NCBI GenBank assembly: GCA_964016885.1
Contig: OZ024743.1
Span: forward strand, 103,106,001-103,170,000
Length of the DNA stretch: 64,000 nucleotides
Direction: 5' to 3'
From: Eledone cirrhosa
Taxonomy: Eukaryota
Shown: positions 1 to 55,480 of the stretch, one piece after another
How the letters are laid out: the number at the start of each line of letters is the position of its first letter
Numbering within the stretch: position 1 is the stretch's first letter
Notes under the pieces: model-generated
What the model was told of the DNA's origin: nothing
Databases searched by the model: none
What the model saw: only the letters and a program-made list of their open reading frames with translations
Translations under genes and position numbers: made by a program

Positions 1-2741
1 GACTGTTCTTTAGTGGGGGTGTCTTAACTACGATGTTTATATCATCTACGTAGCGGGAGTACATTATCAGGGTTAAGCTGTCTTCTAATTGTTCATTAAG
101 TTTTTGTTTAAGTCTACTGTCCCACCATACCATGAATAAGTTAGCTATGTCGCCTGCAATGCTAACACCAATGGCTGCTCCTTCCTCTTGGGCATATGTT
201 TTACCATTAAATTTGAACATATGTTCCTTAAGGGTTAATTTTATGCTGGCCCCTACCGCATGTGCAATCATTTTCTTCAGTTCATCGTGGTTTTCGGGTG
301 TCCGTATGGCTCTGGTCCACCCGTTCCATCTATCTGTGTGGGTTTTCTTGGCCATTGAGGTAATGGTAGGTGGTCTGCCTCTTGCTGGTCTTGTAGGGCA
401 CAGGTTGCTAAGGTCATAAGTGTCTAGGTAACTATTACTATGGGTAAGCTTAAGTAGAAGTCCCAGCTCACTGGTATCAATCCCACGGAACTCAACCTTG
501 CTCTCGCTGATCATTTCGACGCATTTCTCCACAGCAAAATCCACGTTAATAGATGGATACAGGGACACAACATCCATACTGCCTATTATGCAGTTTGTTA
601 GGTCCCCAGATCGGTTACCCGCGCCGATTCTGCTGAGGAGGTCCTCCGTGCTGTCACACACATCTGGGGACATCTCAATGATGGGGCGTATGATCAGGGA
701 GAGGAAGTAGGACAGTCTGTAGTTACTAGCAATGTTAGCCCCACAGACTGGCCGTGTTGGTGGTCCCGCGACAGGGTCCCAGCCCGTTTTATGGTCTTTT
801 CGAAGCCCATACAACGCCGGCACGTCATTGTTCCAGGCCTGGAAGTTGTTGGCAGTCCTTTTCTTGGGCTGCATTATATTTGTCCACATCACCATATGGG
901 CATTGAGGGTTTTTTCTCTATCCTCATGCTCCTGTGGTGTTACCTCTCTTGTGTTAGTGATGTGGGGTTGCATTGCCTGGATGTAGTTTGGCAGGCTGTC
1001 AACCGACATTTTGCCAGACTTGTCTGTTGGAAAGCATACTATCTCTCCATTACGCGAGCGCTGCATGAGCTTACGCAAGCCATTTGCAGATTCTTCTCCC
1101 AGTTGCTGGGCCTCTATTCTATTATGCTTCTTGCTATACTGTTCTATAATATTTCTAAGTTCGGATTTAGCTATACTAAATTGTGCTTCTGTTTGTTCAT
1201 CGACCTGCGACGGCAACTGCGTGCGTTTGTTAAATGGCAAAGTCGTGGCGTGGACTCGTCGTAGGTCGAATGATTTATCGGAGGGGTTATAAAACGGAGA
1301 GTTCCAGGCTGCTGCTTTATGTGTACTAGTGCTATTGTTATTGTTAGTTGTGTTGTTTCTATTTCCACCAACAGCAGCAGCCTCAGCTTCATGGTTGTTT
1401 CTATGTCTCTCATAATTACTCCTGTCTCTTTCCACTGGCTCAATGTTGATATCTACCCTATTTTGTGTGTCTGTGTGTTCGTCTTGGTTATTCTCTTTGT
1501 CCTTAGTCTCCCATCTCCTTTTCCTTTTAATCCTATTACTTTCTCTTATTTCTCTGATTTCTGTGCTACTGTCATTACTTGTTTTCTGTGTCTGTGTGTT
1601 TGTTAAGATTGTGGTGGTGGTGAGAGGCATTGAATGCGTGTGTGTTGTTGTTGTTGATGTGTGTTGTTGTTGATGTGTGTTGTTGTTGTCTCCGTGTGTG
1701 TGTGTGTTATCGTTGTTGTGTGTTGTTATTGTTGTTTGTGTTTGCGTGTCTGTTGTTGTTGTATCTGGGTATGTTGCTATTGTTGTTGTTGTTGATGTGT
1801 GTGTTGTTGTTATTGTTGTCTCCGTGTGTGTTGTTATTATTGTTTGTGTCTGCGTGTCTGTTGTATCTGGGTATGTTGCTATTGTTGTTGTTGTATCTGG
1901 GTATGTTGCTATTGTTGTTGTTATTGTTGTTTGTGTCTGTGTGTCTGTTGTTGTTGGGATGTGTGTTGTATATGTGTGTGCGTATATTGTTGCTTTTGTT
2001 TTTGTTTTTGATGCTCCAGCGTAGTTTCGTAAATGATTTTTCTATTTCTGACAGACAACTAATCATATTTACCTTCTTGAATGTCGCAAATTTGGGTGGC
2101 AGACGTAACACAGACATTTCATTATTATCTATTTCCGTGTTTCCATAAATGTTGGTATTTTCATTGTTGAACTCTTCAGATAATGAGGTGTCGGCCATGT
2201 TGATACCGTCAATTTTGTCGGGATATCTATTGGTATACTCTATAGTATCCCGATTTAGCTTTGCCTGTTTAAGCCACTTTAATTTTCTGTTAAAGTGCTT
2301 ATTACATTCTTGAGTAATGTACTGTTCTTCGGGGCGTATAAGGCTTATAAATGTTAGTTTTTCTGCTGGTGTGGTGATTTTCGATATTTCATCTATTAGG
2401 TTACGCTTTAGTTTTTCTTGATGACTTAATTCTCTATAGATCTTCTTTTTTATGTTTAGAATTAAAGTTCGTTTTAGCCTATCTGCTTGTTTTTTGGTGA
2501 GTTGTAATCTTCTAACGTCGGTATTGATGGTGTTGGTGTAGATTCTAGAAGTGGTGCACAGTTTTATGAAGTGTAGTTGTCGAGATGTTATGGTTTTTCG
2601 TAGACAACAGAACATGGTGGTTTTCAGTATCTTGTTAGCCTGGCTAAGGCTTACGATATTTCGTTTCTGAATTTGTTTAGCAAGATTCTTTATCTGAAAT
2701 CGTGTGTTGAAACCGATATTGTTATACTTTGGGAGGGTCAT
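1..2741 (-). CDS. PLE polyprotein, N-terminus plus reverse transcriptase (Naiad-like); one frameshift in the N/T-rich low-complexity tract ~1707-2010
   Basis: ATG at 2741 (MTLPKYNN...LRLPPKFA). A second frame, translated by hand, stays open to base 1: PTDKSGK, LYGLRKDHK, GPPTRPVCGA, SMDVVSLYPSI, insertion-in-fingers-like CPTRPARGRPPTITS, QEEGAAIG...MVWWD, YSRYVDD. Confidence 0.85.
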
Positions 2742-2871
2742 GTTGCCAATAAGAAACACACGCAGACACCCGGATGTGGCGCATGCGCAAACTGAGCACG
2801 CAACCCACACACAAACAAAATGGCGTAGGATAGAAGAAAGGAAAGGCACAGAAACGAAGAAAGAAATCCCC

Positions 2872-2916
2872 AGTCACTGAAGAGGTCACAGAGTGTGTGA
2901 CGAAAGAACTATGACT
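2872..2916 (+). ncRNA. Minimal type I hammerhead ribozyme in pLTR
   Basis: AGTCA-CTGAAGA-G-GTCACA(GAGTG)TGTGAC-GAAA-GAAC-TA-TGACT: intact core, paired stems I and II, very short stem III. Confidence 0.8.
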
Positions 2917-3075
2917 ATATATATACAAACAACTATCTGGTTGTGGAACCAACCAACCAACCAGAAATTTATAAATTTATAAATTTGTAAATTTATAAAT
3001 ATATAATAAATTAAATTGAAGTGAAAGCAACTAGTGCGTGTGTTTCTTATTGGCAACATGACCCTCCCAAAGTAT

Positions 3076-3158
<83 letters not shown>

Positions 3159-3394
3159 AAACCAGCTGCTGAACATAAGTCCGAGACTTTATTGACAGCG
3201 AGATATGGAGTGCGAAGAAAAACAAATCTGACCTCGGCGGGAGTAGGCGAAAAGAGGCAGAGACGAGAGAAAACGGAAGTAGTAGGGGAGCAGAGAAAAA
3301 GAGAGTATAAGTGAGAGGGAGAGTGAGGGGGGAGAGAGAAAGAAAGGGAAAGGGTTAAGAATAACAAAGGAAATGTGGAGCAAAAATTAATAGA

Positions 3395-3750
3395 AATTTA
3401 GAAGAAACAAGGGGCTGTGTGGTTACTTGATAAAGTGTATTTAGAAATAAAAGGAAAGTACAAACGGTGTACAATCCCTTCTTCAAATATCTGCTGGAGA
3501 ACACGGACATTTCAATACATTAAAAACAATATGTCTAATTCCATTGCGTCAATAACTTGTTAAAGTTATTGAGGAGGGAAAAGGAGAGAGAAAAAAGGTT
3601 ATTGACGCACTGGAGTTAGTCATATTGTCTTTAATCCGTTGAAATGTCCGTGATCTACAGCAGACAACTGAAGAAGGGATTGTCACCCGTTTTTGCTTCC
3701 GTTTTATTTCTAAATACACTTAACCAAGCCCCTTGTTTCTTCTAAACTTT
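3395..3750. repeat. Degenerate ~160-bp inverted repeat, probably an old head-to-head pLTR pair
   Basis: 3395-3556 is an imperfect reverse complement of 3598-3750. It holds a decayed CTGAAGAAGGG...CCCG motif and abuts (TA)n. Confidence 0.55.
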
Positions 3751-3766
3751 ATATATATATATACAT

Positions 3767-3870
<104 letters not shown>

Positions 3871-4080
3871 CGTTTCTGAATTTGTTTAGCAAGATTCTTT
3901 ATCTGAAAACGTGTGTTGAAACCGATATTGTTATACTTTGGGAGGGTCATGTTGCCAATAAGAAACACACGCACCAGTTGCTTTCACTTCAATTTATTAT
4001 AAATTAAATTTATAAATTTAGGAATTTATAAATTTCCGGCTGGTTGGTTGGTTCCACAACCAGACGATTGTTCATATATT

Positions 4081-4123
4081 GTCAAAGTTCTTTCGTCACA
4101 CATTCTGTGACCTCTTCAGTGAC
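4081..4123 (-). ncRNA. Minimal type I hammerhead ribozyme in pLTR
   Basis: GTCA-CTGAAGA-G-GTCACA(GAATG)TGTGAC-GAAA-GAAC-TT-TGAC on the minus strand, sense to the endonuclease ORF. Confidence 0.75.
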
Positions 4124-4322
4124 TGGGGATTCTTTTCTTTGTTTTTGTGCCTCTCCTTTGTTCTGTCCTAAGCCATCTTGTTTTTGTATGTGTTGTGTGC
4201 TTAGTTTGCGCATGTGTTACATCCGGGTGTCTGTGTGTGTTTATATTTGTTTATTTATTTGTTTATTTACATGTTACTGGTTGGTTGTTTGTTCTATGTG
4301 TGTGTGTGTTTTCATTTTGTCC

Positions 4323-5290
4323 TTAATTGTAAGTTGTGATGTTGCTGTTCCATTCATGTTTTCTATTTAATTTTGGTTGGAGTTCATTTATGTTTATTGC
4401 CTCTGTGATTTGTCTAAACATTGCGTCTTTTCTGTGTGTAGATTCTATTTTTATTTCTATGTTCTCTAATTTACCCTTATGTTCTATTTTAGCATGTTGG
4501 TGGAGTACAGATGATTCTTGACTATCTTGAAGCTCTCGCCAGTGTTCATTTATCCGTTCCCCTATACTACGAACTGTCTCACCTATGTACACTATATTCT
4601 TATCTCTACATTGTCCTTCAGTACATCTTATGCTATATACTACATTTCTAGTTTTACAGTTAATATGGGGGCTTAGTTTACAGATTATACATTTCTTATC
4701 TATACAGGGAGGTCTTTGAAAAGGGTATGTATTGCTAATAAGTGTTTTTATGGAGGTACCTGGTCTTTCTACTATCTTAATATTGAATTTATGTTTATCT
4801 CGGGCCCTTCTAAATTTGTAAGCTAATTCACCTCTAGGGGTTGTATTGATGAACATTACACTCTGGTATTTATTGCTATCATACCATGAGTTTATTCTAT
4901 TAACCTTATTCCTAGTTCTTTCTATTCTATTCCAAAATTTGCTACTATAGAAGGGGCAGGTCCCATTTGTATCATTATTTACCATTTTTTCCCATTTGGT
5001 TCTGGCTCCTCTATATACTCCGATCTTATCTCTCTGATTGTAACCAGAGAACTGCATACGGTGGATGAAGTGTTGTATGTGTCTCTCTGGTTCTTTAGGG
5101 TTGCACATGCGGGACACGTTTTTCATCACCCGTACCAAATCCGCAATCAGTATGTTGATTTTGGTGTGGTCCGAAACAGCTGAGTTTCGGTGGATCAGAT
5201 ATTTGGAAGTCATGGGTTTGGCATAATGGGAATGGAGGATCTGTTTTTTGTTATTGATAATATCTAACCAGAGCTCTGTGTTTAGTACAG
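4323..5290 (-). CDS. PLE C-terminus: RT thumb, CxxxxCxxC zinc finger, GIY-YIG endonuclease (5'-truncated)
   Basis: YAKPMTSKYLIHRNSA, RMQFSGY, CIDKKCIIC, NVVYSIRC...VYIGETVRSIGERINEH, HQHAKIEH, RQITEA, LNRKHEW. Confidence 0.9.
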
Positions 5291-5852
5291 GTAATCAATA
5301 TTAAGATAGTAGAAAGACCAGGTACCTCCATAAAAACACGTATTAGCAATACATACCCTTTTCAAAGACCTCCCTGTATAGATAAGAAATGTATAATCTG
5401 TAAACTAAGCCCCCATATTAACTGTAAAACTAGAAATGTAGTATATAGCATAAGATGTACTGAAGGACAATGTAGAGGATAGAATATAGTGTACATAGGT
5501 GAGACAGCTTGTAGTATAGGAGAAAGGATAAATGAACACTGGTGAGAGCGTCAAGATAGTAAAGAATCATCTGTACTCTACCAACATGCTAAAGTAGAAC
5601 ATAAGGGTAAATGAAAGAACATAGAAAAAAAATAGAATCTACACACAGAAAAGACGCAATTACAATTAAGGACAAAATGAAAACACACACACACATAGAA
5701 CAAACAACCAACCAGCAACATGTAAATAAATAAATATAAACACACACAGACACCCGGATGTAACACATGCGCAAACTAAGCACACAACACACATAAAAAC
5801 AAGATGGCGTAAGACAGAACAAAGGAGAGGCACAAAAAGAAAAGAATCCCCA

Positions 5853-5895
5853 GTCACTAAAGAGGTCACAGAATGTGTGACGAAAGAACTTTGAC
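5853..5895 (+). pseudogene. Hammerhead copy with core mutation (CTAAAGA)
   Basis: Same motif as 4081-4123 but G5 changed to A. Confidence 0.7.
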
Positions 5896-7494
5896 AATAT
5901 ATGAACAATCGTCTGGTTGTGGAACCCACCAACCAACCGGAAATTTATAAATTCCTAAATTTATAAATTTAATTTATAATAAATTGAAGTGAAAGCAACT
6001 GGTGCGTGTGTTTCTTATTGACAACATGACCCTCCAAAAGTATAACAATATATATATATATATATATATATATGATCTTCTTGAAATTAAATTATCATTT
6101 ATATCTATACATTAACAATCAGAAATTCAGTATTTTAGTGTAATCTTTCAAAACATATGAATCACTCTCACGCGGATGGCGAATGATAAATTAAATAGAT
6201 AACTAAATACGTTGTATTGTGGAATTTAATAAAACTCCATAACGCTCTGTATTCAAACCCCGCTTATATCGATTTTAAATATATGCACAAGGCCAGCAAA
6301 GTTAATTAAGTTGACTCCAGTATGTAACTGGTATATTATTTATCAACCTCGGAAGGATGGCAACATTGACCTTGGTGGGATTTGAAAGCAAAATGTAAAG
6401 AGCTACATCAGATACTGCAATGGCATTTTATCTACCACCTTACCAATTCTGTCAGTCCTCTAGACTCAAACCGTGTACGAATATTAGAAATAATTGTTGT
6501 ATCTCTCAGCTTCAACACATTTAAACTTGTATTTTTCTCCAGACCATATATGATGTTATAACAGGCTTAAATTCTTTATAACTTTGTACAGTTTCAATTG
6601 AATAAATATGGGGATGTATTTTCGCGAACCCAAACATTTATACTCCATTGAGTTGAAGGCTAACTCTAGATGGATTTCCTTCGATGTTAAGCAGATGGAG
6701 AGAGATATTACTCCGGGTGAGTTGTCGGTGTATCACGGGTCATTTTCCTCTTATTCAAATTGTATACAGTAGAGTAAGCCAACGAAACATTGACCCGGGT
6801 TTTGAAGTACAATACATTGTCAAGGATCAACCAGCCATAAACAAGATTTTCCAGTTCATGGATTCTACGAAAAGATTCAACAACAGAAACTTTTAGTTGC
6901 TTTATAGTTGTCCTTGAATTTCACCTTTTTTATATATGCTCATTTTGCCTTCCGTTTTCTCCCACCCCCTATCTCTCCCTCTGTTTCTCTATTGTATTTG
7001 CTTTTTAGTTGTAAGGGGTATTAGATACCTGTCCAAATCTGTCACGACGTACTAACTTTATACTGGCGTTTAAATTGAAATAAATAAGTTAAAATGTGAG
7101 CTTTACAAAACTATCCAAAAAGGTTATCTTTAATGTTATAAGATCACTACATTGATTCATTCATAGGTTTGTAACTCAATCAACACTCATACAGGTTACG
7201 ATCATCTCAAGTGGAAATGTAAAAGGTTTGCTCGGTGAGAAAAATAGTTGTTTGAAATAATTCTGTGTATATGACATGTAGGCAAAGAAGTGCAGAATTT
7301 GAAATGAGTCGAATGAAATGAATTTAAGTTCTGCATTGAGGTGTACTAGACTATTTGAGAATTAATTTTGTTAGACCATAGAAACCCCAATACAGTAGCA
7401 GTGAAAGCAAAACTACACTGTGCCGATTCAAGCATTATTAAATTTACTTGACTTCTATTCGTTTATTATATCAACAAAATTATGTCCACAAAAG

Positions 7495-10656: not shown

Positions 10657-11572
10657 TCAAGTTATTAATTGGGTATTGAGTTCTAGTCTATTATTGATTG
10701 GTGGTTGTATTTTGTCTATAATTAGTGCTTCCTTAATTCTAAGATTGCCGAGGTTTCTTTCCTTAGTTTCTATCCTAACTGTTATGGTTTTGTCGGTGTT
10801 TTTGCATTTAACTAGGTGTTTCTTAAATGAGGAAGCGTTAGTATTGAGGTCTTCTTTTATTCTTATGTGGAGTGGTCTGGTGGTGCTACCTATGTAGAAG
10901 TTGCTGCATTTGTCACACTCTAGACTGTATACGACGTAAGCCTGGTGGCATAGGTCTGTGTCGTTGATGGGGCAGTTGGCTAGCCTGCAGCAGTTGTCAT
11001 GTCTGGTGGAGTGTCTTTTGGTTAGCTGTCCGCGTAGAGAAGGACCTGAGTGGGCCAGTTGGATATCTAGTCCCTCTCGTCTGATAGCTTTGCGGATGGC
11101 TGTTGTTGTTTCGTCACTGAAGTGTGGGAGCTTCAGGAAGCAAGTGTTAGTGCCTCGGGTGTGGTGTCCTCTGTTCTTTCTGGCACGGTTTGTGGTGGAT
11201 GTCGTGTATCCGTTCAGTTTGAGTACTTCCAGGAAATGTGTGGTGTGTGTGTCTCGGTCTCTAGCATCGGTGCATTTGTTCCGGATACATGTTAGTTCGT
11301 TCCTTATGTATCCGAACTTAGCGCTGGCTGGGAGGGCCGATCTGAAATGTACGAACAGGTCCCTGCTGGCGACTTTTTTATAGAAGCAGGTGTGGATGTT
11401 GCCTTCCTCTGTTACCCTGAGTTGGAAGTCCAGTAGGGATAGGGATCCGCGGTCATCGGGGTGTTCCATGTTGTACTTTATACTGGCGTCCATGCTGGAG
11501 AATGTTGTGTATATTTTATCTGCCTCCTCACAGGATGATGTAAGGATGAGTATGTCATCTACATATCGGGTA
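10657..11572 (-). CDS. PLE RT C-terminus plus GIY-YIG endonuclease
   Basis: [32 protein letters not shown]...[35 protein letters not shown]...PPINNRLE. Confidence 0.88.
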
Positions 11573-11813
11573 GACAACACGTACTTCACCTTCCACCACC
11601 ACACATACAGACAGACAACAGGATTACCCATGGTATCCAGCCTATCGGGTCTGCTGGCCATCACTTATATCAACCAGCTAGAATGCCGAGCCCTCAACAC
11701 CTGCCATTCCCATACCTTCTTCACCCGATATGTAGATGACATACTCATCCTTACATCATCCCGTGAGGAGGCAGATAAAATATACACAACATTCTCCAGC
11801 ATGGACGCCAGTA

Positions 11814-12862
11814 TGTCGTCGGCAAATTCAGCATCCGATATATTTTTCGCCTTAACTGTCCTGCTCTGAGCCGGTGTTACAGTAAAGTCAGAGTCCTGGT
11901 GTTTCTCCAGCGCAAGACGCATACAATAGTCCACTGCGATGATAAAAAGGTAGGGAGCCAATGTATCTTCCTGGAGCACTCCAGCCAGTATCTCAAAGAA
12001 CTCTGTCATCCCATCAGGTGTAATGATTTGGGCTTTGGTGTTGGTGTAGAGCAGTGATATCAGGTCCACTATTTTCTTGAAGATTTCATAAGCCTGTAAG
12101 ATCTTCATCAGGCAGAGACGGTCCACAGAATCAAAGGCCTTCCTAAAGTCAATGAAAACCATGACTGCAGGAAGGCACTTTGCTCTAGCTCCCTCCTATA
12201 TCCTCCTTAGCATCAGGATGTGACTGGTGGTCGATCTTCCCTCTCCGAAGCCGTTCTCGTTGTCCCTGAGCTTCTTCTCCACTAATAATGTAGGCGGGAA
12301 GCCGCTAGAATTGGTTGACGACTTCCTGTATTTGGGAGCAAAGATTGGGAATACGGAAGATGATGTGGTCGAGAGGAAGAGCAAAGCCTGGGCGGCGTGC
12401 CACAGCTTGAGATCGGTGTGGAAGTCTGACCTTCGTAAAGACCCGAAGATCGGTCTCTTCTTTGCTGTAGTGGAGTCTGTGCTGCTGTACGGGTCTGAGA
12501 CTCGGACACTGATCAAGAAACTGACTCAGATGGTGGATGGGTGCTACACGAGAAATCAGTATACACTGAGGATGAAGAACTCAGAGCTGTACGGGAGCCT
12601 CCCAAAAGTCAGTTCGAAAGTGACACAAGGAGACTGAGGTTAGCTGGACATGCTCACCAACATACAAAGTTGATACTGCACTCAGTGCTCCTGTGGGAGC
12701 CCCTGCATAGACACACTGGAAGAGGAAGACCGAGATTAACATATGTTGAAACCCTAAGGACAGACACTGTTCTCTTGGAGACGCAGGAGATGGCAGTGAT
12801 AATGAGGGACAGAGGGCGCTGGAGAGAACTTGTCCATGGATCTCGGGAATTTTACCCGCCCT
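11814..12862 (+). mobile_element. RTE-superfamily LINE fragment with 5' inversion (11814-12283 inverted, 12284-12862 sense)
   Basis: Minus: NENGFGEGRST, FIDFRKAFDSV, GVLQEDTLAPYLF, EFADD. Plus: DFLYLG, VLLYGSET, RRLRLAGH, RGRPRLTY, DRGRWR. Ends at (TA)n. Confidence 0.85.
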
Positions 12863-20795: not shown

Positions 20796-20847
20796 TATAT
20801 ATAAGAGAAATAGGATTTCGCTTCAAGCATAGCTTTGTACAATATGT

Positions 20848-21348
20848 ATAAATATTTCGTATCTCCAAAGAAATACGGTTTTAGGAAGTTTTAGCTATGC
20901 AAGCACCGGGGGGGGGGGGGGCTAACGCCCTCTGGTGATGTCCAGCAGAAGCAAGGGGGACAACCGTCTATGCATTTCAGGCTTAACTGGCCTTCGTCAG
21001 GACGGGCCCTCTCACCGCTTGCGACTGCTGGACTAGGAGACAGGCAAGAATATATAGTTTTCTCGTCTGTGTAAATGAGGTGATTTCTTTTTTTTATTAT
21101 AAGTTGAGCCAACTTATGCAGCTTCATATACAATTGAGATTAATCACTTCATTTACACAGACAAGAAAAGTATATATTCTTGCCTGTCCCCTAGTCCAGC
21201 AGTCGCAAGCGGTGAGAGGGACCGTCCTGGCGAAGGCCAGTTAAGCCTAAAATGCATAGACGATTGTCCCCCTTGCTTCTGCTGGACATCACCAGAGGGC
21301 TTGCATAGCTACGGCTTCCTAAAACAGTATTTCTTTGGAGATACGAAA

Positions 21349-21356
<8 letters not shown>
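20848..21356. mobile_element. Small head-to-head pLTR pair (non-autonomous PLE derivative) with HHR
   Basis: 20848-21085 is inverted relative to 21142-21356, with an HHR in each arm; right end in (TA)n. Confidence 0.75.
20965..21004 (-). ncRNA. Type I hammerhead (A10.1-U11.1 variant); mirror copy 21223-21262 (+) has core mutations
   Basis: CGTC-CTGACGA-AGGC(CAGTTAA)GCCT-GAAA-TGCA-TA-GACG. Confidence 0.75.
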
Positions 21357-21445
<89 letters not shown>

Positions 21446-21492
21446 AAGTGATATTTATACACACACACACAGACACACACACACACACACAT

Positions 21493-21531
<39 letters not shown>

Positions 21532-21743
21532 CAAATATAAATTAGCGAGAATCGTGTTTCGGCTTAGCAATTAACGAAAAACAACTTCCGAGATGTGTGG
21601 CAAGCGCTCGATGATTCAGATGAATCAGAGCTACAACATACGTTAAAGGCCAAACACACTGAGATGAGGGTTAAACAAAACATCCGCACAGCCAAAGAAA
21701 CGACCAAGTAATTCGGGTCAAACAATAAAAATATATGTGATTG

Positions 21744-21785
<42 letters not shown>

Positions 21786-21854
21786 GACGTAAAATAAGAA
21801 AATATTTTTTTAAAAAAATTAAAAAAAAAAAATTTTTTTCTTACTTAAATTTTC

Positions 21855-21936
21855 ACTCCAACTAATTAGTTTCTGCAATGGGATAAAGACAGTTACGTAA
21901 TCCAACTGTCGAGAATTCATTGCGTCATCAGGGAGT
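21855..21936 (-). ncRNA. Long-stem-II hammerhead, monomer copy 1
   Basis: Reverse complement of 23379-23460. Confidence 0.7.
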
Positions 21937-22420
21937 CTATTCTCAGTTAAGTCTCCAGGCAATGCGCGGACACTGGCGGCTCATATAAAAATAATAATAA
22001 TTCGGTAGATCGAACAGCTTGCGAGGACTGGATTCTATGTACCGAAATTCTCACTGCTTCAAGTCAAATGGCCGATTCTAAAGAATCAATCACGTGACAC
22101 AGAGGCTAGTTAGAAGGAATGGGATGGTAAGATGACTGACGCCTACTAACACCCCAAAAAAAATTTTTTTAGAAGTGGTTTTGACAAGTTTGCTCGACAA
22201 ATCAGTGATTTGGAGATAAATATAGATAATTTAATATATCAACTAACATAAGCGCACAGATGCACGCCCATGCCAGCAAATACACAGGTTATGTCATAGT
22301 ACCTAGGTGGTTCAATGCAGGAGAATGCAGAACAATAATATAAAGGACGTAAAATAAGAAAATATTTTTTTAAAAAAATTAAAAAAAAAAAAAAAAAATT
22401 TTTTTGTTACTTAAATTTTC

Positions 22421-22502
22421 ACTCCAACTAATTAGTTTCTGCAATGGGATAAAGACAGTTACGTAATCCAACTGTCGAGAATTCATTGCGTCATCAGGGA
22501 GT
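22421..22502 (-). ncRNA. Long-stem-II hammerhead, monomer copy 2
   Basis: Reverse complement of 23379-23460. Confidence 0.7.
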
Positions 22503-22980
22503 CTATTCTCAGTTAAGTCTCCAGGCAATGCGCGGACACTGGCGGCTCATATAAAAATAATAATAATTCGGTAGATCGAACAGCTTGCGAGGACTGGATT
22601 CTATGTACCGAAATTCTCACTGCTTCAAGTCAAATGGCCGATTCTAAAGAATCAATCACGTGACACAGAGGCTAGTTAGAAGGAATGGGATGGTAAGATG
22701 ACTGACGCCTACTAACACCCCAAAAAAAATTTTTTTAGAAGTGGTTTTGACAAGTTTGCTCGACAAATCAGTGATTTGGAGATAAATATAGATAATTTAA
22801 TATATCAACTAACATAAGCGCACAGATGCACGCCCATGCCAGCAAATACACAGGTTATGTCATAGTACCTAGGTGGTTCAATGCAGGAGAATGCAGAACA
22901 ATAATATAAAGGACGTAAAATAAGAAAATATTTTTTTTTAAAAATTAAAAAAAAAAAATTTTTTTCTTACTTAAATTTTC

Positions 22981-23062
22981 ACTCCAACTAATTAGTTTCT
23001 GCAATGGGATAAAGACAGTTACGTAATCCAACTGTCGAGAATTCATTGCGTCATCAGGGAGT
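22981..23062 (-). ncRNA. Long-stem-II hammerhead, monomer copy 3
   Basis: Reverse complement of 23379-23460. Confidence 0.7.
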
Positions 23063-23378
23063 CTATTCTCAGTTAAGTCTCCAGGCAATGCGCGGACACT
23101 GGCGGCTCATATAAAAATAATAATAATTCGGTAGATCGAACAGCTTGCGAGGACTGGATTCTATGTACCGAAATTCTCACTGCTTCAAGTCAAATGGCCG
23201 ATTCTAAAGAATCAATCACGTGACACAGAGGCTAGTTAGAAGGAATGGGATGGTAAGATGACTGACGCCTACTAACACCCCAAAAAAAAAAAAAAAAATC
23301 CCCAAAAAAAAAAATTATTATTATTTTTATATGAGCCGCCAGTGTCCGCGCATTGCCTGGAGACTTAACTGAGAATAG

Positions 23379-23460
23379 ACTCCCTGATGACGCAATGAAT
23401 TCTCGACAGTTGGATTACGTAACTGTCTTTATCCCATTGCAGAAACTAATTAGTTGGAGT
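23379..23460 (+). ncRNA. Long-stem-II hammerhead, monomer copy 4
   Basis: ACTCC-CTGATGA-C-GCAATG[..GACAGTT..AACTGTC..]CATTGC-A-GAAA-CTAATTAG-TT-GGAGT. Confidence 0.7.
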
Positions 23461-23939
23461 GAAAATTTAAGTAAGAAAAAAATTTTTTTTTTTTAAATTT
23501 TTTTAAAAAAATATTTTCTTATTTTACGTCCTTTATATTATTGTTCTGCATTCTCCTGCATTGAACCACCTAGGTACTATGACATAACCTGTGTATTTGC
23601 TGGCATGGGCGTGCATCTGTGCGCTTATGTTAGTTGATATATTAAATTATCTATATTTATCTCCAAATCACTGATTTGTCGAGCAAACTTGTCAAAACCA
23701 CTTCTAAAAAAATTTTTTTTGGGGTGTTAGTAGGCGTCAGTCATCTTACCATCCCATTCCTTCTAACTAGCCTCTGTGTCACGTGATTGATTCTTTAGAA
23801 TCGGCCATTTGACTTGAAGCAGTGAGAATTTCGGTACATAGAATCCAGTCCTCGCAAGCTGTTCGATCTACCGAATTATTATTATTTTTATATGAGCCGC
23901 CAGTGTCCGCGCATTGCCTGGAGACTTAACTGAGAATAG

Positions 23940-24021
23940 ACTCCCTGATGACGCAATGAATTCTCGACAGTTGGATTACGTAACTGTCTTTATCCCATTG
24001 CAGAAACTAATTAGTTGGAGT
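23940..24021 (+). ncRNA. Long-stem-II hammerhead, monomer copy 5
   Basis: Same motif as 23379-23460. Confidence 0.7.
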
Positions 24022-24500
24022 GAAAATTTAAGTAAGAAAAAAATTTTTTTTTTTAAAATTTTTTTAAAAAAATATTTTCTTATTTTACGTCCTTTATATT
24101 ATTGTTCTGCATTCTCCTGCATTGAACCACCTAGGTACTATGACATAACCTGTGTATTTGCTGGCATGGGCGTGCATCTGTGCGCTTATGTTAGTTGATA
24201 TATTAAATTATCTATATTTATCTCCAAATCACTGATTTGTCGAGCAAACTTGTCAAAACCACTTCTAAAAAAATTTTTTTTGGGGTGTTAGTAGGCGTCA
24301 GTCATCTTACCATCCCATTCCTTCTAACTAGCCTCTGTGTCACGTGATTGATTCTTTAGAATCGGCCATTTGACTTGAAGCAGTGAGAATTTCGGTACAT
24401 AGAATCCAGTCCTCGCAAGCTGTTCGATCTACCGAATTATTATTATTTTTATATGAGCCGCCAGTGTCCGCGCATTGCCTGGAGACTTAACTGAGAATAG

Positions 24501-24582
24501 ACTCCCTGATGACGCAATGAATTCTCGACAGTTGGATTACGTAACTGTCTTTATCCCATTGCAGAAACTAATTAGTTGGAGT
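24501..24582 (+). ncRNA. Long-stem-II hammerhead, monomer copy 6
   Basis: Same motif as 23379-23460. Confidence 0.7.
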
Positions 24583-24766
24583 GAAAATTTAAGTAAGAAA
24601 AAAATTTTTTTTTTTTTTTATTTTTTTAAAAAAATATTTTCTTATTTTACGTCCTTTATATTATTGTTCTGCATTCTCCTGCATTGAACCACCTAGGTAC
24701 TATGACATAACCTGTGTATTTGCTGGCATGGGCGTGCATCTGTGCGCTTATGTTAGTTGATATATT

Positions 24767-24819
<53 letters not shown>

Positions 24820-24823
<4 letters not shown>

Positions 24824-26088
24824 GGATGGATCGTGAAGAAACTTGTTTAACTAGGTTTTTTTCGTGTGCTTTCGACAAGTTCAACCTTCGACATGTTTCC
24901 AATCGCCTTCTTTTCCAAACATAATTGAACCCAAAATCTTCCCTGGATGTGGTAAGGGAGACATCGCATTTATATCTAGAATTCACTAATACCAACAGAT
25001 GTCCTCTTTCGTTGAAAATGATTGCAATTCCCAGTGAGAGTCAGTTATACAATGACCATTAAAAAACTCCCAAGGTAAAACACTGCAAGTTGTCTGTCTC
25101 CATCTAGAAGAGAGATGTTCCTCACATGGTCATTCGTAGGTAGCTTATTCCAGACTTGCAGGGACCTAAAAACTCTTCATATAGGCTCCAAAGAAAATAG
25201 TTAAAACATTGTATATATTGAAGTTCTGTAAATGTTTTATAATTTTCGTATGATACATTTTTCTATTATTTTCTTTCTTTATTATATATATCACCTTCTT
25301 TTCCTGAAATGGAATGGGGCGGGGACCATCGGATTTTCACAGCCTCAGAGATTACTTCGGTGCGAATAACAGGTGCAGAAAGGGAGGGGGACACTCGGAG
25401 TTACAGATAAGCTGCTTAAATTTATAGAAAAGCAATCTTTTCCTTGATACTGAAGGATGTTTTGATCCTTCGTTATTTTGTACTATTGTGGAAAGCGTTG
25501 TAAGCTTAATTAATTAAGTGTTCCCTAATTTCAAAATCCACTATTCCAATGAGGAGTGGCTGTGCAAAAGAGCAATCCTTGCACTCCAAAACATCACAGT
25601 GAATACCATCAACGGAATTTCTCTTAACTGAACCCTGGAGACCTATAAAATCTACCGATGCTAAAAATATTGTATATACTGAAGTTCAGTATGTGTTTTA
25701 TAATTTTCACAGAATTGAGAGATCACAACTCCGATGTTATGAGCATGTGGTTAGAATGTCTCAGTAAAGAATCGCTGGACACATTTTACAGGTAAAAACC
25801 AACCATCAAGAGACCCAGAGATAGACCCTGAGCAAGATAGTTGTATAACACCCATGAGCTTGGCTAGTCACGCTATTGGATCCAGCTGCATCAGTTAGAG
25901 ATGTTTGCTACTGACAGATTCGCTGGAAGGAGTGTTTGAGAAAGACTCTGCCCCCACGACTCTCTCAGAAATAAGTGGGTGAAGAAGAAGATATTGTCAA
26001 TTTACTTTTCAATTTACATATATCTATATGCATATATATTTGCGATAATACCAATATGCACACTACGGGGGCGGTTTTTCTGTTAGTA
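24820..26088 (+). mobile_element. Decayed Helitron remnant (PIF1-like helicase C-terminus at ~24985-25230)
   Basis: Broken frames give IPTDV..LQFPVRVSYTMTI..SQGKTLQVVCLHL...SHG..VAYSR..KNIVY. Boundaries approximate. Confidence 0.6.
25710..25991 (+). mobile_element. RTE LINE 3' end with (GAA)n tail
   Basis: Similar to 41200-41440 (IERSQLR..HVVRMS); ends GTGGGTGAAGAAGAAG. Confidence 0.65.
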
Positions 26089-36865: not shown

Positions 36866-37026
36866 TAATATATATATAATACGCCATTCCTCTCTCTTTC
36901 TTACTCTGTCCTTTTAGATAGATACATAGCTACAACGTCGCGCGCTTATAATTTCTGTCTGTATGTCTGCCTGTCTGCATTGACTTCGCTTCTAACCAAC
37001 TTTTAATTAATTCCCACACACTTCCC

Positions 37027-37058
37027 ACCTGAGGAAGGGCTTATGCCCGAAACGTCGT
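37027..37058 (+). ncRNA. Minimal type I hammerhead
   Basis: AC-CTGAGGA-A-GGGC(TTAT)GCCC-GAAA-CG-TC-GT; GUC cleavage triplet; stem I only 2 bp. Confidence 0.75.
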
Positions 37059-37321
37059 CCCCCACCAACACCCCACTCTCAAGAGCGTGAAATTAATAAA
37101 CATTTGTTGTACTGCCTCTCTGTTTTGTCCCTGTTCAAATTTTTCCATTATATATAATAGACGCTCACACCGCTTCCATTCCTTGGAACATAACTTAACT
37201 ACCGGCTCAACCCCGATCTAATCCGCCGTGACCTTTCTCCGAACTTTACACACCTTCCCACACTTGGTCTTTCCTTCCACGCCCCTACACACCCTTTGAA
37301 CTCTGTTCCCACACACTTCCC

Positions 37322-37353
37322 ACCTGAGGAAGGGCTTATGCCCGAAACGTCGT
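37322..37353 (+). ncRNA. Minimal type I hammerhead (second copy)
   Basis: Same as 37027-37058. Confidence 0.75.
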
Positions 37354-37474
37354 CCCCCACCAACACCCCACTCTCAAGAGCGTGAAATTAATAAACATTT
37401 GTTGTACTGCCTCTCTGTTTTGTCCCTGTTCAAATTTTTCCATTATATATATATATATAATTATATATTCGTGT

Positions 37475-47640: not shown

Positions 47641-47983
47641 TGTTTTACGTAGTGCTTGTATCTGAAAAACGTAACAATCTTTAAGGTGTATATATATATA
47701 TATATATATATATATGCGAGAAAAACTAAAACTGCTCCATCTCAATTCTACTTTTGAAAAGCACAAGGACTGCGAAACCGGTAAATGAACCAAATAAATA
47801 TTTTTAAAAAGGACCCAGCTGCATTTTCGATTTCATCTTTTTTCCTTATACTTTCACTCGTGTAGGACATCTCGTATTTTTTCATTTTGTAAAAAAAACC
47901 TCATTTTCTAATATATATATGTCCCAAGGCTCTGATACCATCAACACTATAAACACAGAGCTGACATATCTAAGAACTGACTA

Positions 47984-48039
47984 ACTGCCTGATGAGGTCA
48001 TAGCCATTCAATGGCTATCATCGAAATATATATAGCAGT
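47984..48039 (+). ncRNA. Canonical-core type I hammerhead
   Basis: ACTGC-CTGATGA-GGTCATAGCCATT(C)AATGGCTATCATC-GAAA-TATATA-TA-GCAGT, then AATAAA. Confidence 0.85.
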
Positions 48040-48080
48040 AAATAAAGGATTATGAGTTCATGCAATTGACTTATGTTTCG

Positions 48081-48150
<70 letters not shown>

Positions 48151-48194
48151 GAAAGAAGAGTGACACGGTTTGCTATACAAAAAAGGTTTTTAAT

Positions 48195-48313
48195 CTCATT
48201 GCTGACAATTGTTTCTCTGAACTGGTAGGTCTAGAGATCGCTACCCGCTTATTTTCACGTTATTCGATCACCAATACAAAGTTATAACCAGTCAATTCAT
48301 CGGAGCTTGTGAG
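48195..48313 (-). ncRNA. Long-stem-II hammerhead variant (mirror copy)
   Basis: Reverse complement of 49904-50022. Confidence 0.55.
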
Positions 48314-48771
48314 AATGAAAAGAATATACAGGCATGGCTACTATATATAATAGTAATGGCATTCAATCAGAACAACAACAACAATACTAACAATGCTAGC
48401 AATAAATTATTTGAAATAATCACAACATCAATCTAGGTGGGAAGTATAGTATATTTACGATATTAGCGTGTAAAACTAGCTGACATGAGGCAGATGTATA
48501 AAATTGACATGTAAAAGCTGTCATGGGGGTGTATTATATCTAGTGTAAAGATAAGCCGGTGGCTTTAAACAATATAGGTCTGGTGGCCGTAAGACTCATT
48601 TATTATCTGATAGATGAAGAATGTATCACTGTAGTGAGGATAGTAATATTTGTGTGGTCTATATTAGATGAAAGGGTTGTCTAGTTTTCTCATCATCAAT
48701 AACATACATGTATAAGACAACATTAACAGAGTAGCAATATAATGGGCAAGTTAATACAGAGATTAAGGAGG

Positions 48772-48814
<43 letters not shown>

Positions 48815-49903
48815 CACACAAACATATATATATATATATACATACACACATATACATACATATAAAGAGAAAACATGCTACAGTGGGACATACCGGTTGA
48901 TACTGTATTTGGTGTTGTTGTCCTTAAGTTCCCTTAGTATCAACTCGTCGAGGTTGTCGGCCGCAAAGACCTACAGTACCGGTATGTCCCACTGTAGGCT
49001 ATGTGATCTCGAATTACTGTATATCCTTAGAAATGTAAAAAGGCTACTTAACAACAAGTTAGAAAGATCAATCTTCTGCAGACACAGGATCGCCACTAAA
49101 TTCGCAAGATTTAAACCTCCGTGAATCGAACCGACGTAACTTAGCTTTCAACTTAGGATACCCACTACACTGCACGAACCACCACAGAAATATAATCATT
49201 AAGTACATTCTAGCCTTCTTAGTTCTATACCACACTAATGTCTGTAAGTACATCATCAACCCATAAATATATCTCTTCTCAGCTGCTGTCAGCACATGAA
49301 CCTAAATCCAAGAACATTTCAAAATACTACGACAACAGAACTTTACCTTCCCCCTGTTATAATTATAGTCAGTATGTTTTCTCTTTATATGTATATGTGT
49401 GTATGTATATATATATGTGTTTGTGTATATGTATATATATATATTGCCTCCTTAACCTCTGTATTAACTTGCCCATTATATTGCTACTCTGTTAATGTTG
49501 TCTTATACATGTATGATATTGATGGTGAGAAAGCTAGACAACCCTTTCATCTAATATAGACCACACAAATATTACTATCCTCACTACAGTGATAAATTCT
49601 TCATCTGTCAGATAATAAATGAGTCTTACGGCCACCAGACCTATATTGTTTAAAGCCACCGGCTTATCTTTACACTAGATATAATACACGCCATGACAGC
49701 TTTTACATGTCAATTTTATACATCTGCCTCATGTCAGCTAGTTTTACACGCTAATATCGTAAATATACTATACTTCCCACCTAGATTGATGTTGTGATTA
49801 TTTCAAATAATTTATTGCTAGCATTGTTAGTATTGTTGTTATTGTTCTGATTGAATGCCATTACTACTATATATAGTAGCCATGCCTGTATATTCTTTTC
49901 ATT

Positions 49904-50022
49904 CTCACAAGCTCCGATGAATTGACTGGTTATAACTTTGTATTGGTGATCGAATAACGTGAAAATAAGCGGGTAGCGATCTCTAGACCTACCAGTTCAG
50001 AGAAACAATTGTCAGCAATGAG
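49904..50022 (+). ncRNA. Long-stem-II hammerhead variant (CCGATGA core)
   Basis: CTCA.caa.GCT-CCGATGA-A-TTGACTGGT[~60 nt]ACCAGTTCAG-A-GAAA-CAATTG-TC-AGC.aa.TGAG. Confidence 0.55.
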
Positions 50023-50242
50023 ATTAAAAACCTTTTTTGTATAGCAAACCGTGTCACTCTTCTTTCCTGATTTATCATTACTCCAAGTGTTTACAACATA
50101 GGAATTACAGCGTACTCGTAATATCACTATGGAAACGCCTTGTTGAGTCAAACTTAGCCAAACGTTGATATCATCCACTACCCGGAGTACCATAACTGGA
50201 CTACACTTAAGTGGACTACCTATAACAATAATTTGTTACCCC

Positions 50243-50302
<60 letters not shown>

Positions 50303-50374
50303 TGCATATATATATTAGAAAGTGAGGTTTCTTTACAAAATGAAAAAAAAACGAGGTGTCCTACACGAGTGAAA

Positions 50375-50416
<42 letters not shown>

Positions 50417-50737
50417 AATTTGGCTCTACATGGCTGATTACAATAAATGTAATCTGAGTTTTTCGAATATTTATAACATTCGATTCGTTTGCAATTTTGC
50501 AAACAAGCCTCAATTTTATAGCCATGTCAGAAGAATGAACACTTCATTCTTGCTCTTGTGTTGGCATGCGAACAGAACCGCAGACACTAATGTTTCTGGG
50601 TATCACCCTTCATCAGTACAGCTCACTGTTCACCTGCCAACTGTCAGAGCTAATATCGTCCCAGGATGATATTTGTTTTTGAAATGGGCATAATAAAATA
50701 CATGGAACTTTTTTAACGATCTTTTAATTTCTTCTTA

Positions 50738-51794: not shown

Positions 51795-54700
51795 TATATA
51801 CACGGCATAATGGGTGACATCCTTTTTTTATAATGTTGACTTGGTCATTTTTTGTTGGCAGACACTTAAACGCGGGTTTCCTTGGATTTGCGATAAGTAA
51901 TCATTAGACCCCTTGGGTATCATTCCTAGAGCGCCTACAACCACTGGTATTGTTTTAGTTCTCAATTTCCACATTTTTCCAATTTCTATCTCCAGGTCCT
52001 TATACGTGCTCAATTTTTCAAATGTTTTTAAAGATACATTCTTGTCTATGTGTTTGATGTGGTTATATGCTGCTACTGTTGTATCTAGAGATATATCAGA
52101 TGAAAGAATAGTATTTAACTAATGTATTCGTACGCGATGCCCCCCCCCCCCACAGCCCCGGCCGACAGAATGGAGAAGGCGTTTCCCCGGAGTACGGCAA
52201 GGGAGACGCGCTGGAAAAGCCACTCCAACTCGCGGGGCTCACACCTGCGGCTGGCCAGCTCGGCGCCTATGGTGGTGAGTAAGGAGGTAGCCCTGGGGCC
52301 GAGGACACCAGAAGTCTCCACTGCCAGGGGAACGACCGCAAACCTGTCGCAGAGCGACCGGTATTTGAGGAGTTTGGCCCCCTCAGCCCGACATGCAGCA
52401 GAACCTGGGTTAGTCGCAGACTGCACCAGGTTGCGGCTGCAGAAAGTGTCAGTGCAAGTGGCATCCCAGACGAGGGGTTTGCCACCGCGGAACGGGAAGA
52501 TGATCATGCCATCTGGCCTTTTGCCGTCCCCTCGATCTAGCCCCACCGGCTCGAGCTGGGAAGGGAAGCCTGCAGAGTCCAAGCCATGCTTAATGACCTC
52601 GTTGAGGGCAGTATGGCGTGGAATGCAGCCGGCACTGTGGCGACAGAAAAGCGGGTGGAGGCCGAAAGAGTCCACGGTGGAACCGCAGCGACATTGGTGT
52701 GGCTGGCAGATCCGTAGGCCGAGCTTCAGGGAAACGCCGATTCGCCGGCTATGGTTGTCTAGCTGCGTGCCAGTGGAGAAGGAGGGCAGGGCATGGAGAC
52801 AGGCACCACTGTGGGGTTTGGAGGCCGCACGAAAACAAGCAAGGCGGTGCTGGTTAAGCTGGCGCGTGAACATGTCGGAGGCACGGCTGCACTGGATGGC
52901 ATCCCAAGTGCGTTGGGGGGACTTGACGTCAACAGGGGGAGAAGGAGGAGGGACGTCTACTGGGCTAAGTCCCAGCCGGTCCCACGTCTCACAGGCGGCC
53001 TCACGTTCTCTGAACACAGAGGGTTCTGTTGTGTTTTGAAGAACCCTGCTGACGAGGGCGCGGCACGAGGTTACCGACGAAAGATACGCCGGCAAAGCTA
53101 GTGAGATCGGGGACCGGAGGCCAAGACCGCCATACCTGACCGGTAAAGTGGCCTGTTGCCACCCTATGTCGTCAAACTTGACGTTGCATATCCCCTCTGC
53201 TGCTGCTCGGATACAAGTCTCGAGGTCAGCGGGGAGAGATGTCTGGGTGTAGCATGGAGCGCTGCGGAGTGTATAGAGGAGCTTCGGCATGGCAAAGCAG
53301 TTCCTCGGCAGAAAGAGAGCTGAGTGGCCTTCAATCAAGCCCAGTCGGCTCGTGAGAGTCTGGAATAGTTGAAGCCTGGACCTGATGGTGGAGCGGATGG
53401 CGGGCGGGTGGATCGGTGACCCGAGGATGAGGATATCCTCTTTGGGGTCACCAGAACCTGGCGGAGAATGGACCGCACGTCCAAGACGGAGGCTGCAAAG
53501 TTCGCAGCATCGAGGCTGACGTTCACCACCTCCGACTTGGCCGAGTTGACCCGGAGACCGATTCCCGCCAGGGCAGGAATCACCGATTGAAGTTCATAGC
53601 AGACCGTCCGTACGGGCCCGCCCAACGTAGCATCATCCAGATACCAAACGTTGAGAGGGACCATGATACTCCGGGCGATGTGGTCAATACCAAGGGCGAA
53701 CAGGAGGGGTCCGAAAGGGTCGCCTTGTTGGACCCCAGTAGCTGAGGGTATGACCGTATCAGCAGCTAGAAGCATGCTCGGGTCTCCATATGACAGGTAG
53801 GCAGAGGGGGCTCGGCTGAGGCAGGCCTCGAGCAGATGATCCCGGCGTAAAGAGTTAAAGGCATTCCTCATGTCAAGCTTGACAATGAGGTGCCTGGAGT
53901 CCCTGGATGCCGGTACCGATGGACAGCTGCTGAAGAACTGCCTAATTGCATGAGCGGCTCCTTCACAGCCACCGGACACGCAGACACCCAGTTACACCGG
54001 ACTAAACTCCTCACCCAGTTCGTGTGTGACGGACTTGCAGATCACCTTGGCAGCCAGCCTCCGGAAGACATTGCCCACAGCAATGGGCCGTATGCCACCC
54101 TTGGAACGGAGATATCAATTAGCAGGCATACCCTTTTTAAAAGTCCTTCGGTATTATATCAGGTCTATTTGCATCTATTTTTCGGTCTGTTTGGATGCTT
54201 AAGATTGAGATGTGATCTTTTTCAAGTCCGGGAGGTGGTTGATGCTCCCACCAATTCTTTTGATGGGGCAGATCAAAATGCTTACACATTATCCAATGTA
54301 TGTATTGTGCAGCTCTGTCATGCCTGTTTAGGTATTCGGTTGGAGCTAGAGGACTGCACATTGAAATTATATGATCAATGGTCTCTGGTTGTTTTTTACA
54401 TACACGGCATAATGTGTTGCATCCATTTTTTATTATGTTGGCTTGGTAATATTTTGTTGGCAAACACTGATCTTGTGCTGATATAATCAGTCCTTCAGTC
54501 TCCGATTTCAGTCCAGAGGATGCCAACCACTGATGGGTTAAAGTTTTGTCAACATCAGGATTGTTAACTCTTTCTGGGTATTTTCCATACAGAGGCTTTT
54601 CTTGCCATTTCTTAGCCAGTTTCTGTAGCAGTCCTTTCTTTGCAGTTACTTTTACCTGCTTTGCTTTTTCTGTGTTTTTCATTTCAACAGTAAATGGAAC

Positions 54701-55480
54701 TTCTGAAATTTGTAGTCCATTACTGTATCTTTGTGAATCTTTTGTAATGGAGTAAGATCTTTTGATTCTTTCGTGTTTCAAAACGAGTTGATCATCCAAT
54801 CATGTGATTCCCTTAGATATGTAGATAATCCAATTGTTGTAGTTTTCAACGCAATATTTAACTGGATTAACCCACGTCCTCCTTCTTTCCTAGGGAAATA
54901 TATTCTATCTGTATCTGCCTTAGGGTGATGCATTCTGTGCATGGTTAAGAATTTTCTAATTTTTGTATCGAGCCTACGGATCTCTGTGCTTCACCAGTTG
55001 ATGACATTGTAACTGTAGGTTACTACTGGTGTGGCAAGCGTGTTTATGGCATCGATCCTATTCCTTGCATTCAATTCCGTTCTTAAGATTGCTCTTACTC
55101 TGCGGTAACATTCCTTCCTTATCCTTTCCCTCATTGTCGAGTGCTTGATTCCGTCTCCTTCACAAACACCTAGATATTTGTAAGTTTCCCCTTGATCAAG
55201 TTCTCTTATCACATTCCCCCGATCAAGATTAATGTCTGAATTTTTCAGCAACTTTCCTCTGGTGAACGTTGCTTTGGAGCATTTATCTAGTCCAAACTCC
55301 ATTTTAATGTCATCACTGAACTGCTCCACAGTGGATAATAGCCCTTGCAATATTTCGTCATTTTTGGAAAATAGTTTCAGGTCATCCATGTAGATCAAGT
55401 GATTAATGGTTTTGTCATAGACTTTATACCCATGTTTTGTTTCATTGAGCATTTTACGTATAAGTGCGATGCAGAATAAA
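51795..55480 (-). mobile_element. R4/Dong-type non-LTR element, 5'-truncated, split by a CRE insertion
   Basis: Close paralogue of 62350-63930: YMDDLKLF, LKSETEG, CRVC, RHD, RPDII, KYKDLEIEI. Confidence 0.9.
52050..54102 (-). mobile_element. CRE-clade non-LTR retrotransposon, 5'-truncated, with at least one frameshift
   Basis: GGIRPIAVG, GGCEGAAH, KLDMRNAFN, GVQQGDPFGPLLF, WYLDD, LPVRYGGLG, CRCG..H..C zinc finger, RH, RPDG, WDATC, KY, AVETSG (restriction-like endonuclease). Confidence 0.85.

Follow-up and report, generated by a model that had tools for sequence, protein, structure and literature searches.

The closest described systems to the motif analysed here are the hammerhead ribozymes of Penelope-like elements (PLEs) and the non-LTR retrozymes of animals. 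PLE hammerheads carry an extra base after A9, a long helix II, a short helix I and a palindromic helix III, and are dimeric; the 2014 descriptor allows 'a possible extra N10' and 'a possible extra N11' (Cervera and De la Pena, PMC4209133), and a hand count of Fig. S3 in that source gave U17 in 24 of the 56 rows and GUU in 15 of 56. PLE insertions show inverted 5' copies and (TA)n targets (PMC8557442), and one PLE protein has been described that both cuts and extends the two strands (PMC11167929). The hammerhead of the Anolis PLE depends on protein, and was dispensable for insertion in vitro (PMC11167929). As for retrozymes, the monomers of other animal members are circularised by a host ligase (PMC7229834), and one of nine Xenopus retrozyme dimers was cleaved in vitro (bioRxiv 2026.07.22.740005). 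A natural U10.1-U11.1 combination has been reported, U.U being the best-tolerated mismatch there (Perreault et al. 2011, PMC3088659). Further background on the subject is given in PMC6765202, PMC1636495 and PMC2837043.

The window analysed here, a stretch of 64,000 nt from Eledone cirrhosa (contig OZ024743.1, positions 103,106,001 to 103,170,000, forward strand), was rich in microsatellites, had a GC content of mostly 30-44% and was crowded with decayed retroelements. A preliminary description had called 23379-23460 on the plus strand an atypical hammerhead, and this assignment was upheld. The segment is a type I hammerhead of 82 nt, in which the core CUGANGA ... GAAA ... NUH lies at a three-way junction and ends at stem I. 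The core bases are all consensus, and stem I, the core, the C and A, stem II, the distal hairpin and GAAA-CTAATTAG-TT were each found at the position named in that description. The elements are as follows.

23379..23460, plus strand: the hammerhead of the preliminary description, type I
23379..23383, plus strand: 5' arm of stem I, 5 bp; partner 23456-23460, or the 3' arm of the next copy in the dimer
23384..23390, plus strand: core C3-A9, CTGATGA, consensus
23391, plus strand: unpaired C; N10.1 of a C.A mismatch or a bulged 'extra N10'
23392..23440, plus strand: whole stem II; 6 bp, a 7x7 internal loop and a 7-bp distal hairpin with a 9-nt loop
23392-23397/23435-23440, plus strand: proximal helix of stem II, 6 bp, enclosing 37 nt
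23405-23411/23421-23427, plus strand: distal hairpin, 7 bp
23441, plus strand: unpaired A; N11.1 of the mismatch or 'extra N11'
23442..23445, plus strand: core G12-A15.1, GAAA
23446-23453, plus strand: CTAATTAG, an 8-nt palindrome, followed by TT at 23454-23455
23444..23455, plus strand: 12-nt palindrome; 10-bp intermolecular stem III with possible A14-U17 pairs
after 23455 (GUU), plus strand: predicted cut site
23363-23368/23467-23472, plus strand: possible stem I extension ACTTAA/TTAAGT, weakly supported (pair probability 0.05-0.08)

The Watson-Crick pair (usually G-C) that stands at 10.1-11.1 against A9 and G12 was absent, with C and A intervening. The two bases probably stack as a mismatched 10.1.11.1 pair rather than forming two separate bulges, because sister PLE families have G-C, U.U or U.C at this place. 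As U.U is the best-tolerated mismatch (PMC3088659), C.A should be slower. The PLE-type characters were present, namely an extra C after A9 followed by G..C, a 6-bp helix II and a 5-bp helix I, together with a palindromic helix III that is predicted by folding to allow a double hammerhead. The palindrome described earlier is real; its length is 12 nt and not 10, because A14 and U17 are complementary and can pair together. The sequences ACTTAA/TTAAGT, proposed earlier to extend stem I, also exist, but another register is preferred. They were rejected as a firm helix on account of their low pair probability and because most of the 3' arm falls within sequence that the family-variant comparison skipped.

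The motif was then compared with chance and with existing models. A strict descriptor (stem I of at least 5, stem II of at least 6, a self-complementary stem III of 8-10 nt and loop 2 of at most 45) gave 6 matches in the real window against none in 150 dinucleotide shuffles of the window; the six matches represent one event, being six identical 82-nt copies. Rfam returned no match at gathering score in the whole window, and its 11 weak matches at E<=10 in 21000-25500 included no hammerhead. This Rfam test is insensitive to PLE-type motifs, because all the other hammerhead-like cores in the window were missed as well. The motif was not matched either by our re-implementation of the printed 2014 min-HHR descriptor (PMC4209133 Fig. 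S7; loop 2 of 3-10 nt, 2 nt between GAAA and UH), which agrees with the earlier expectation that standard descriptors would miss it. This failure is due not to the mismatch but to the lengths of loop 2 (37 nt) and stem III (8 nt), as the re-implemented descriptor matched the motif once loop 2 and stem III were lengthened, with the extra N11 still needed. Pattern scans of metagenome contigs and of viral contigs gave no match in either.

When compared with the metazoan PLE minimal hammerheads (PMC4209133), the motif shares the extra base after A9 followed by G..C, the long helix II, the short helix I, the palindromic helix III, the frequent GUU and the dimer mode. One of the 56 rows in that source has an extra A before GAAA; it is the 29th entry, which we infer to be the Cotesia row, and it also has GUU. 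The present motif differs from these hammerheads in two features that fall outside the descriptor, a stem III insert of 8 nt and a loop 2 that is branched and 37 nt long. PLE-X1_cBra of Chara braunii, listed under 'Canonical HHR Motifs' (Craig et al. 2021, PMC8557442 File S2), shows the same CTGATGA-C, a 6-bp stem II started by G-C, A-GAAA and a palindromic stem III, and differs in its 7-nt loop 2, cleavage after C and its origin in an algal, ORF-bearing element. In the Hydra-clade PLE hammerheads (PMC8557442 Files S1, S2), our hand counts found a mismatch at the base of stem II in 15 of 25 families (14 U.U and one U.C) and U at the cleavage site in 10 of 25. These hammerheads also have a near-palindromic stem III of 7-8 nt, Penelope-1/18_HM being one base off this motif, as well as (TA)n targets and an inverted 5' copy. 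The differences from that clade are C.A instead of U.U or U.C, a loop 2 of 37 nt instead of 3-10 nt, and no attached ORF. Long loops 2 occur in PLE-X1_sMoe and PLE-X1_sTam (about 34 and 29 nt by eye, PMC8557442 File S2), which are plant elements marked as deviating in that file, where a distal hairpin is unstated. The C-A, GUU and palindromic stem III had been taken to define an unrecognised class; all three features have in fact been published, and the motif is a Penelope-type hammerhead of known kind that leaves the known range of hammerhead cores unchanged. The sole uncommon trait is the branched 37-nt loop 2 with its apparently conserved stem II, and sources beyond those covered may describe it. 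Our literature search, whose coverage of PLE-hammerhead variants was incomplete, found nothing on such a branched stem II or on the 561-bp family described below.

The hammerhead sits in a 561-bp non-coding unit, and six identical 82-nt copies were found, three on each strand, arranged in two head-to-head arrays.

21778..24772: whole insertion of two head-to-head arrays; right end approximate, merging into a TA tract
23313..24772, plus strand: plus-strand array, 1460 nt or 2.6 units, 3 hammerheads
21778..23289, minus strand: minus-strand array, 1512 nt or 2.7 units, 3 hammerheads
23290..23312: junction of the 5' ends of the two arrays, A-runs and a short repeat of the adjoining CCCC-A-run
21746..21782: left (TA)n tract, inferred target site
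24771..24821: right (TA)n tract, inferred target site
23940..24021, plus strand: identical hammerhead copy
24501..24582, plus strand: identical hammerhead copy
22981..23062, minus strand: identical hammerhead copy
22421..22502, minus strand: identical hammerhead copy
21855..21936, minus strand: identical hammerhead copy

The outer end of the plus array lies approximately 195 nt beyond its last predicted cut, and that of the minus array approximately 83 nt beyond. A target-site duplication was looked for, and both outer ends were seen to run into (TA)n. The unit copies are 98-100% identical. The four cut-to-cut monomers, 560-566 nt in length, differ only in an A/T-rich stretch lying within 50 nt after the cut, and the insertion is therefore taken to be recent and single. 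The unit has a GC content of 0.36, with no Met-started ORF longer than 80 aa and no tRNA gene (ARAGORN, 0 genes), and no ORF with reverse transcriptase and GIY-YIG was found within 21778-24772. The locus has the sequence characters of a non-LTR retrozyme, with at least two consecutive tandem units each bearing a complete type I hammerhead (3 + 3 copies), in a non-coding unit of a few hundred bp with GC below 50%.

Animal non-LTR retrozymes are likewise non-coding tandem units with one type I hammerhead per unit (PMC7229834; bioRxiv 2026.07.22.740005), and the GC content of 36%, the well-folded predicted circle and the presence of PLEs in the same genome add to the likeness, which lies at the level of sequence and predicted fold. 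The length of 561 bp is inside the range of 51-972 bp given by Li, Clavereau and Pollet (bioRxiv 2026.07.22.740005) and above the 150-450 bp given by Cervera and de la Pena 2020 (PMC7229834). The present unit differs from these retrozymes in its PLE-like hammerhead, which lacks the canonical 6-bp/4-bp helices, and in the two head-to-head arrays.

Folding predictions were made for the monomer, the dimer, the natural tandem and the circle. In the isolated monomer, the 3' half of the palindrome was taken up by pairing with CUGAU (P 0.80-0.87), and stem III had P 0.11. Two strands reached -55.2 kcal/mol against -45.6 kcal/mol for two monomers, and their optimum was a double hammerhead, in which the neighbouring palindromes form a 10-bp stem III and the arms of stem I are swapped. 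In the natural tandem, the inter-copy stem III was predicted with P 0.96-0.99, a value from 561-nt pairing that ignores folding kinetics; the constrained double hammerhead lay 3.4 kcal/mol above the optimum, versus 15.5 for two monomer hammerheads. Cleavage in the dimer, the mode proposed earlier for tandem transcripts, is thus what folding predicts, with an inactive monomer and a dimer that forms the double hammerhead. Two details of the predicted dimer speak against its activity: the inner swapped stem I had P of only about 0.2, and A14-U17 pairing (P 0.87) would occupy core bases. The circular monomer folded with z=-3.8, and the antisense circle also folded well (z=-2.7). Within the circle, stem I and the core-palindrome pairing each had P 0.09, and the active form lay 4.4 kcal/mol above the optimum.

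The unusual stem II may be read in a further way. The motif would be an active hammerhead subtype whose conserved, branched stem II gives a new tertiary contact or a handle for a protein, offsetting C.A and GUU, and the stem III palindrome would also be an off-switch, masking the CUGAU core by pairing with it and giving way when a second copy takes its place. We regard this proposal as rather unlikely. Its off-switch part is opposed by the finding that pairing of core and palindrome prevails in the isolated motif alone (P 0.85), falling to P 0.09 in the full circle. As a general switch this pairing was rejected, being weak in the circle, and the hammerhead at 50616 folds no double hammerhead. 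The core spacing in the 561-bp-unit hammerhead is 51 nt, and that of the Naiad 'HHR_half_core' cases is 35-50 nt (PMC8557442). If the proposal were true, these wide-core Naiad cases could be overlooked working ribozymes.

Sequence variation in the family was examined in runs outside the window. Part of the unit was contained in 20 of 24 runs, and at least half of its words were found in 5 of 24; the six RNA runs listed contained a share of 0.04 of the words and were given no weight. The comparison of the family covered four of the 24 (X1, X13, X6 and X11). Run X1 gave 1001 contigs on the unit with many variants, as in a multi-copy family, this being a contig count and not a copy number. Run X13, with another organism code, gave 4 contigs, one of them with a head-to-tail joint. 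Two contigs came from each of X6 and X11; they were mostly at a depth of about 3 and identical to the window, and therefore added no variation. The unpaired C and A and U17 had no variant at or above 2% in X1 (39 of 40 variant rows), and X13 had no listed change at C, A or GUU. The possibility that C/A or U17 are private mutations of one copy was consequently rejected, as neither X1 nor X13 has a listed variant there; C/A and GUU are the family norm.

The 35 positions of the core, stem I and stem III had no listed variant in X1, when compared to 19 of 104 flanking positions (p=0.004; 39 of 40 rows). Against the whole unit, the same comparison was not significant (0/35 versus 37/446, p=0.10); other parts of the unit contain stretches of 84, 64 and 49 nt that are likewise invariant. 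Stem II contained 11 variable sites. At three pairs of stem II or the distal hairpin, both partners vary, and the changes together would re-establish Watson-Crick pairing, as judged from marginal frequencies only, and the putative partners are unequal in frequency, for example 3% versus 15% at one pair. Eight of nine substitutions at paired sites were compatible with pairing, and a relocation test for such variation gave P=0.007 and 0.013. One variant in X1 breaks the outer distal pair, and a change in one X13 contig breaks a stem II pair. Another view of X13, by eye in the table of loose ends, showed one contig with the C/A flanks kept, both halves of one such putative compensatory change and a much altered loop. 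The variation in these sequences fits compensatory change in a long stem II.

Other elements were observed in the window.

1707-6073: Penelope-like element, decayed, whose C-terminus resembles GIY-YIG by eye but has no Pfam match; inverted pieces; hammerhead-like cores at 2877 (plus) and 4119 (minus)
10657-11869: PLE fragment with reverse transcriptase-like and GIY-YIG-like parts (PF01541 E 0.009, below cut-off) and a 92-bp inverted copy
20842-21361: insertion of palindromic structure, carrying a hammerhead at 21000 (minus), A-U at the base of stem II and an AUA site; mirror copy near 21227 (plus) with two core changes
23771-23801, repeated at this place in every unit: block of 31 nt containing CACGTG and a short palindrome, which in X1 and X13 is also seen joined to other sequence
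37011-37156 and 37306-37451: identical 146-bp direct repeat, whose copies hold minimal PLE-type cores at 37029 and 37324, 295 bp apart
47847-50379: inverted repeat (48142-48845 versus 50075-49372, 96%) among TA tracts; hammerhead at 47989 (plus) with a long stem II and palindromic stem III
50561-50623, minus strand, core 50616: second, unrelated type I hammerhead, laid out alike, in which a 4-bp stem II has an A on either side; 8-nt stem III, near-palindromic, GUC site and long stem I, in a short piece between TA tracts; two-strand fold not a double hammerhead
53049, plus strand: CTGACGA...GAAA core in a GC-rich retroelement piece adjoining an ORF
54101-55481: copy related to the reverse transcriptase frame at 60447-63323
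60447-63323, plus strand: 958-aa open frame with a LINE-type reverse transcriptase domain (Pfam RVT_1, E 1.3e-28)

The 31-nt block is possibly a shared promoter-like or protein-binding module. Motif scans resolved no stems at the 53049 core, and aligning three hammerheads of the window gave no useful information. As a possible Hydra-clade driver, the PLE piece at 4323-5294 was considered and rejected, since it was unlike the Hydra alignment by eye and had no Pfam match.

The locus is likely, as judged from its sequence, to be a young insertion of a high-copy, non-coding, tandem non-LTR element of the retrozyme type with a PLE-type dimeric hammerhead, probably mobilised by a (TA)n-targeting Penelope-like element. 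A multimeric transcript would form double hammerheads and be cut slowly after GUU, perhaps with the assistance of a protein. Cleavage would release 561-nt monomers, which a host ligase would close into circles. The PLE protein targeting (TA)n would cut both strands of a TA tract, and each cut strand would prime reverse transcription outward-in on the circle (or a long multimer) for approximately 2.6 rounds. Joining of the two cDNAs at their ends would give the head-to-head array.

It is unlikely that the hammerhead fold is kept while cleaving little, or only with protein, so that uncut multimeric RNA moves and the motif acts as a binding or folding signal for the PLE protein. Such a role would agree with the Anolis PLE hammerhead, which needs protein and was not required for insertion in vitro (PMC11167929), with the eight of nine Xenopus dimers that stayed uncleaved (bioRxiv 2026.07.22.740005), and with the combination of C.A, U17 and the predicted A14-U17 pair in this motif; the cut site, moreover, coincides with neither outer end nor either 5' end. 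Against it, the core bases are all consensus with no listed variant in X1, the tandem animal hammerhead repeats tested in PMC7229834 cleave and circularise, and each arm crosses the cut site three times. A 561-nt circle would be the simpler explanation of this crossing, because the alternative is two long linear templates or one of at least 5.3 units. The unit could instead be the pseudo-LTR or 3' end of an autonomous PLE that was inserted in short tandem pieces, and so would not form a retrozyme family of its own. PLE insertions are indeed partial tandems with an inverted 5'-truncated copy (PMC8557442), retrozymes reportedly derive from pLTRs (bioRxiv 2026.07.22.740005), and in some contigs part of the unit is joined to other sequence at loose ends 23771 and 23801-23813. 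We nevertheless consider this origin improbable. The five full or partial units taken together contain no ORF, the share of X1 running on into unlike sequence is 0, the best of the loose ends listed are supported by 4-5 contigs, a direct head-to-tail joint was found in X13, and none of the PLE pieces of the window showed a match to the unit.

The near-identity of the copies (98-100%, differing only in the A/T homopolymer stretch after the motif) would also be expected from an assembly fold-back artefact, or from satellite expansion at the DNA level with a chance hammerhead look-alike. This is very improbable, as the sequences outside the two arms are unique and unlike each other, the arms stop at separate places in the unit, several runs and organism codes contain the unit, and 150 shuffles gave no chance match.

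As the motif shows, Rfam and short-loop descriptors undercount PLE-type hammerheads. The head-to-head arms of 2.6 rounds are consistent with a PLE protein that primes from two strands on a circle, and this clean, recent, six-copy insertion is useful for the question of how animal retrozymes insert, as well as for that of what stops retrozyme circles from cutting themselves, which is left open in PMC7229834.
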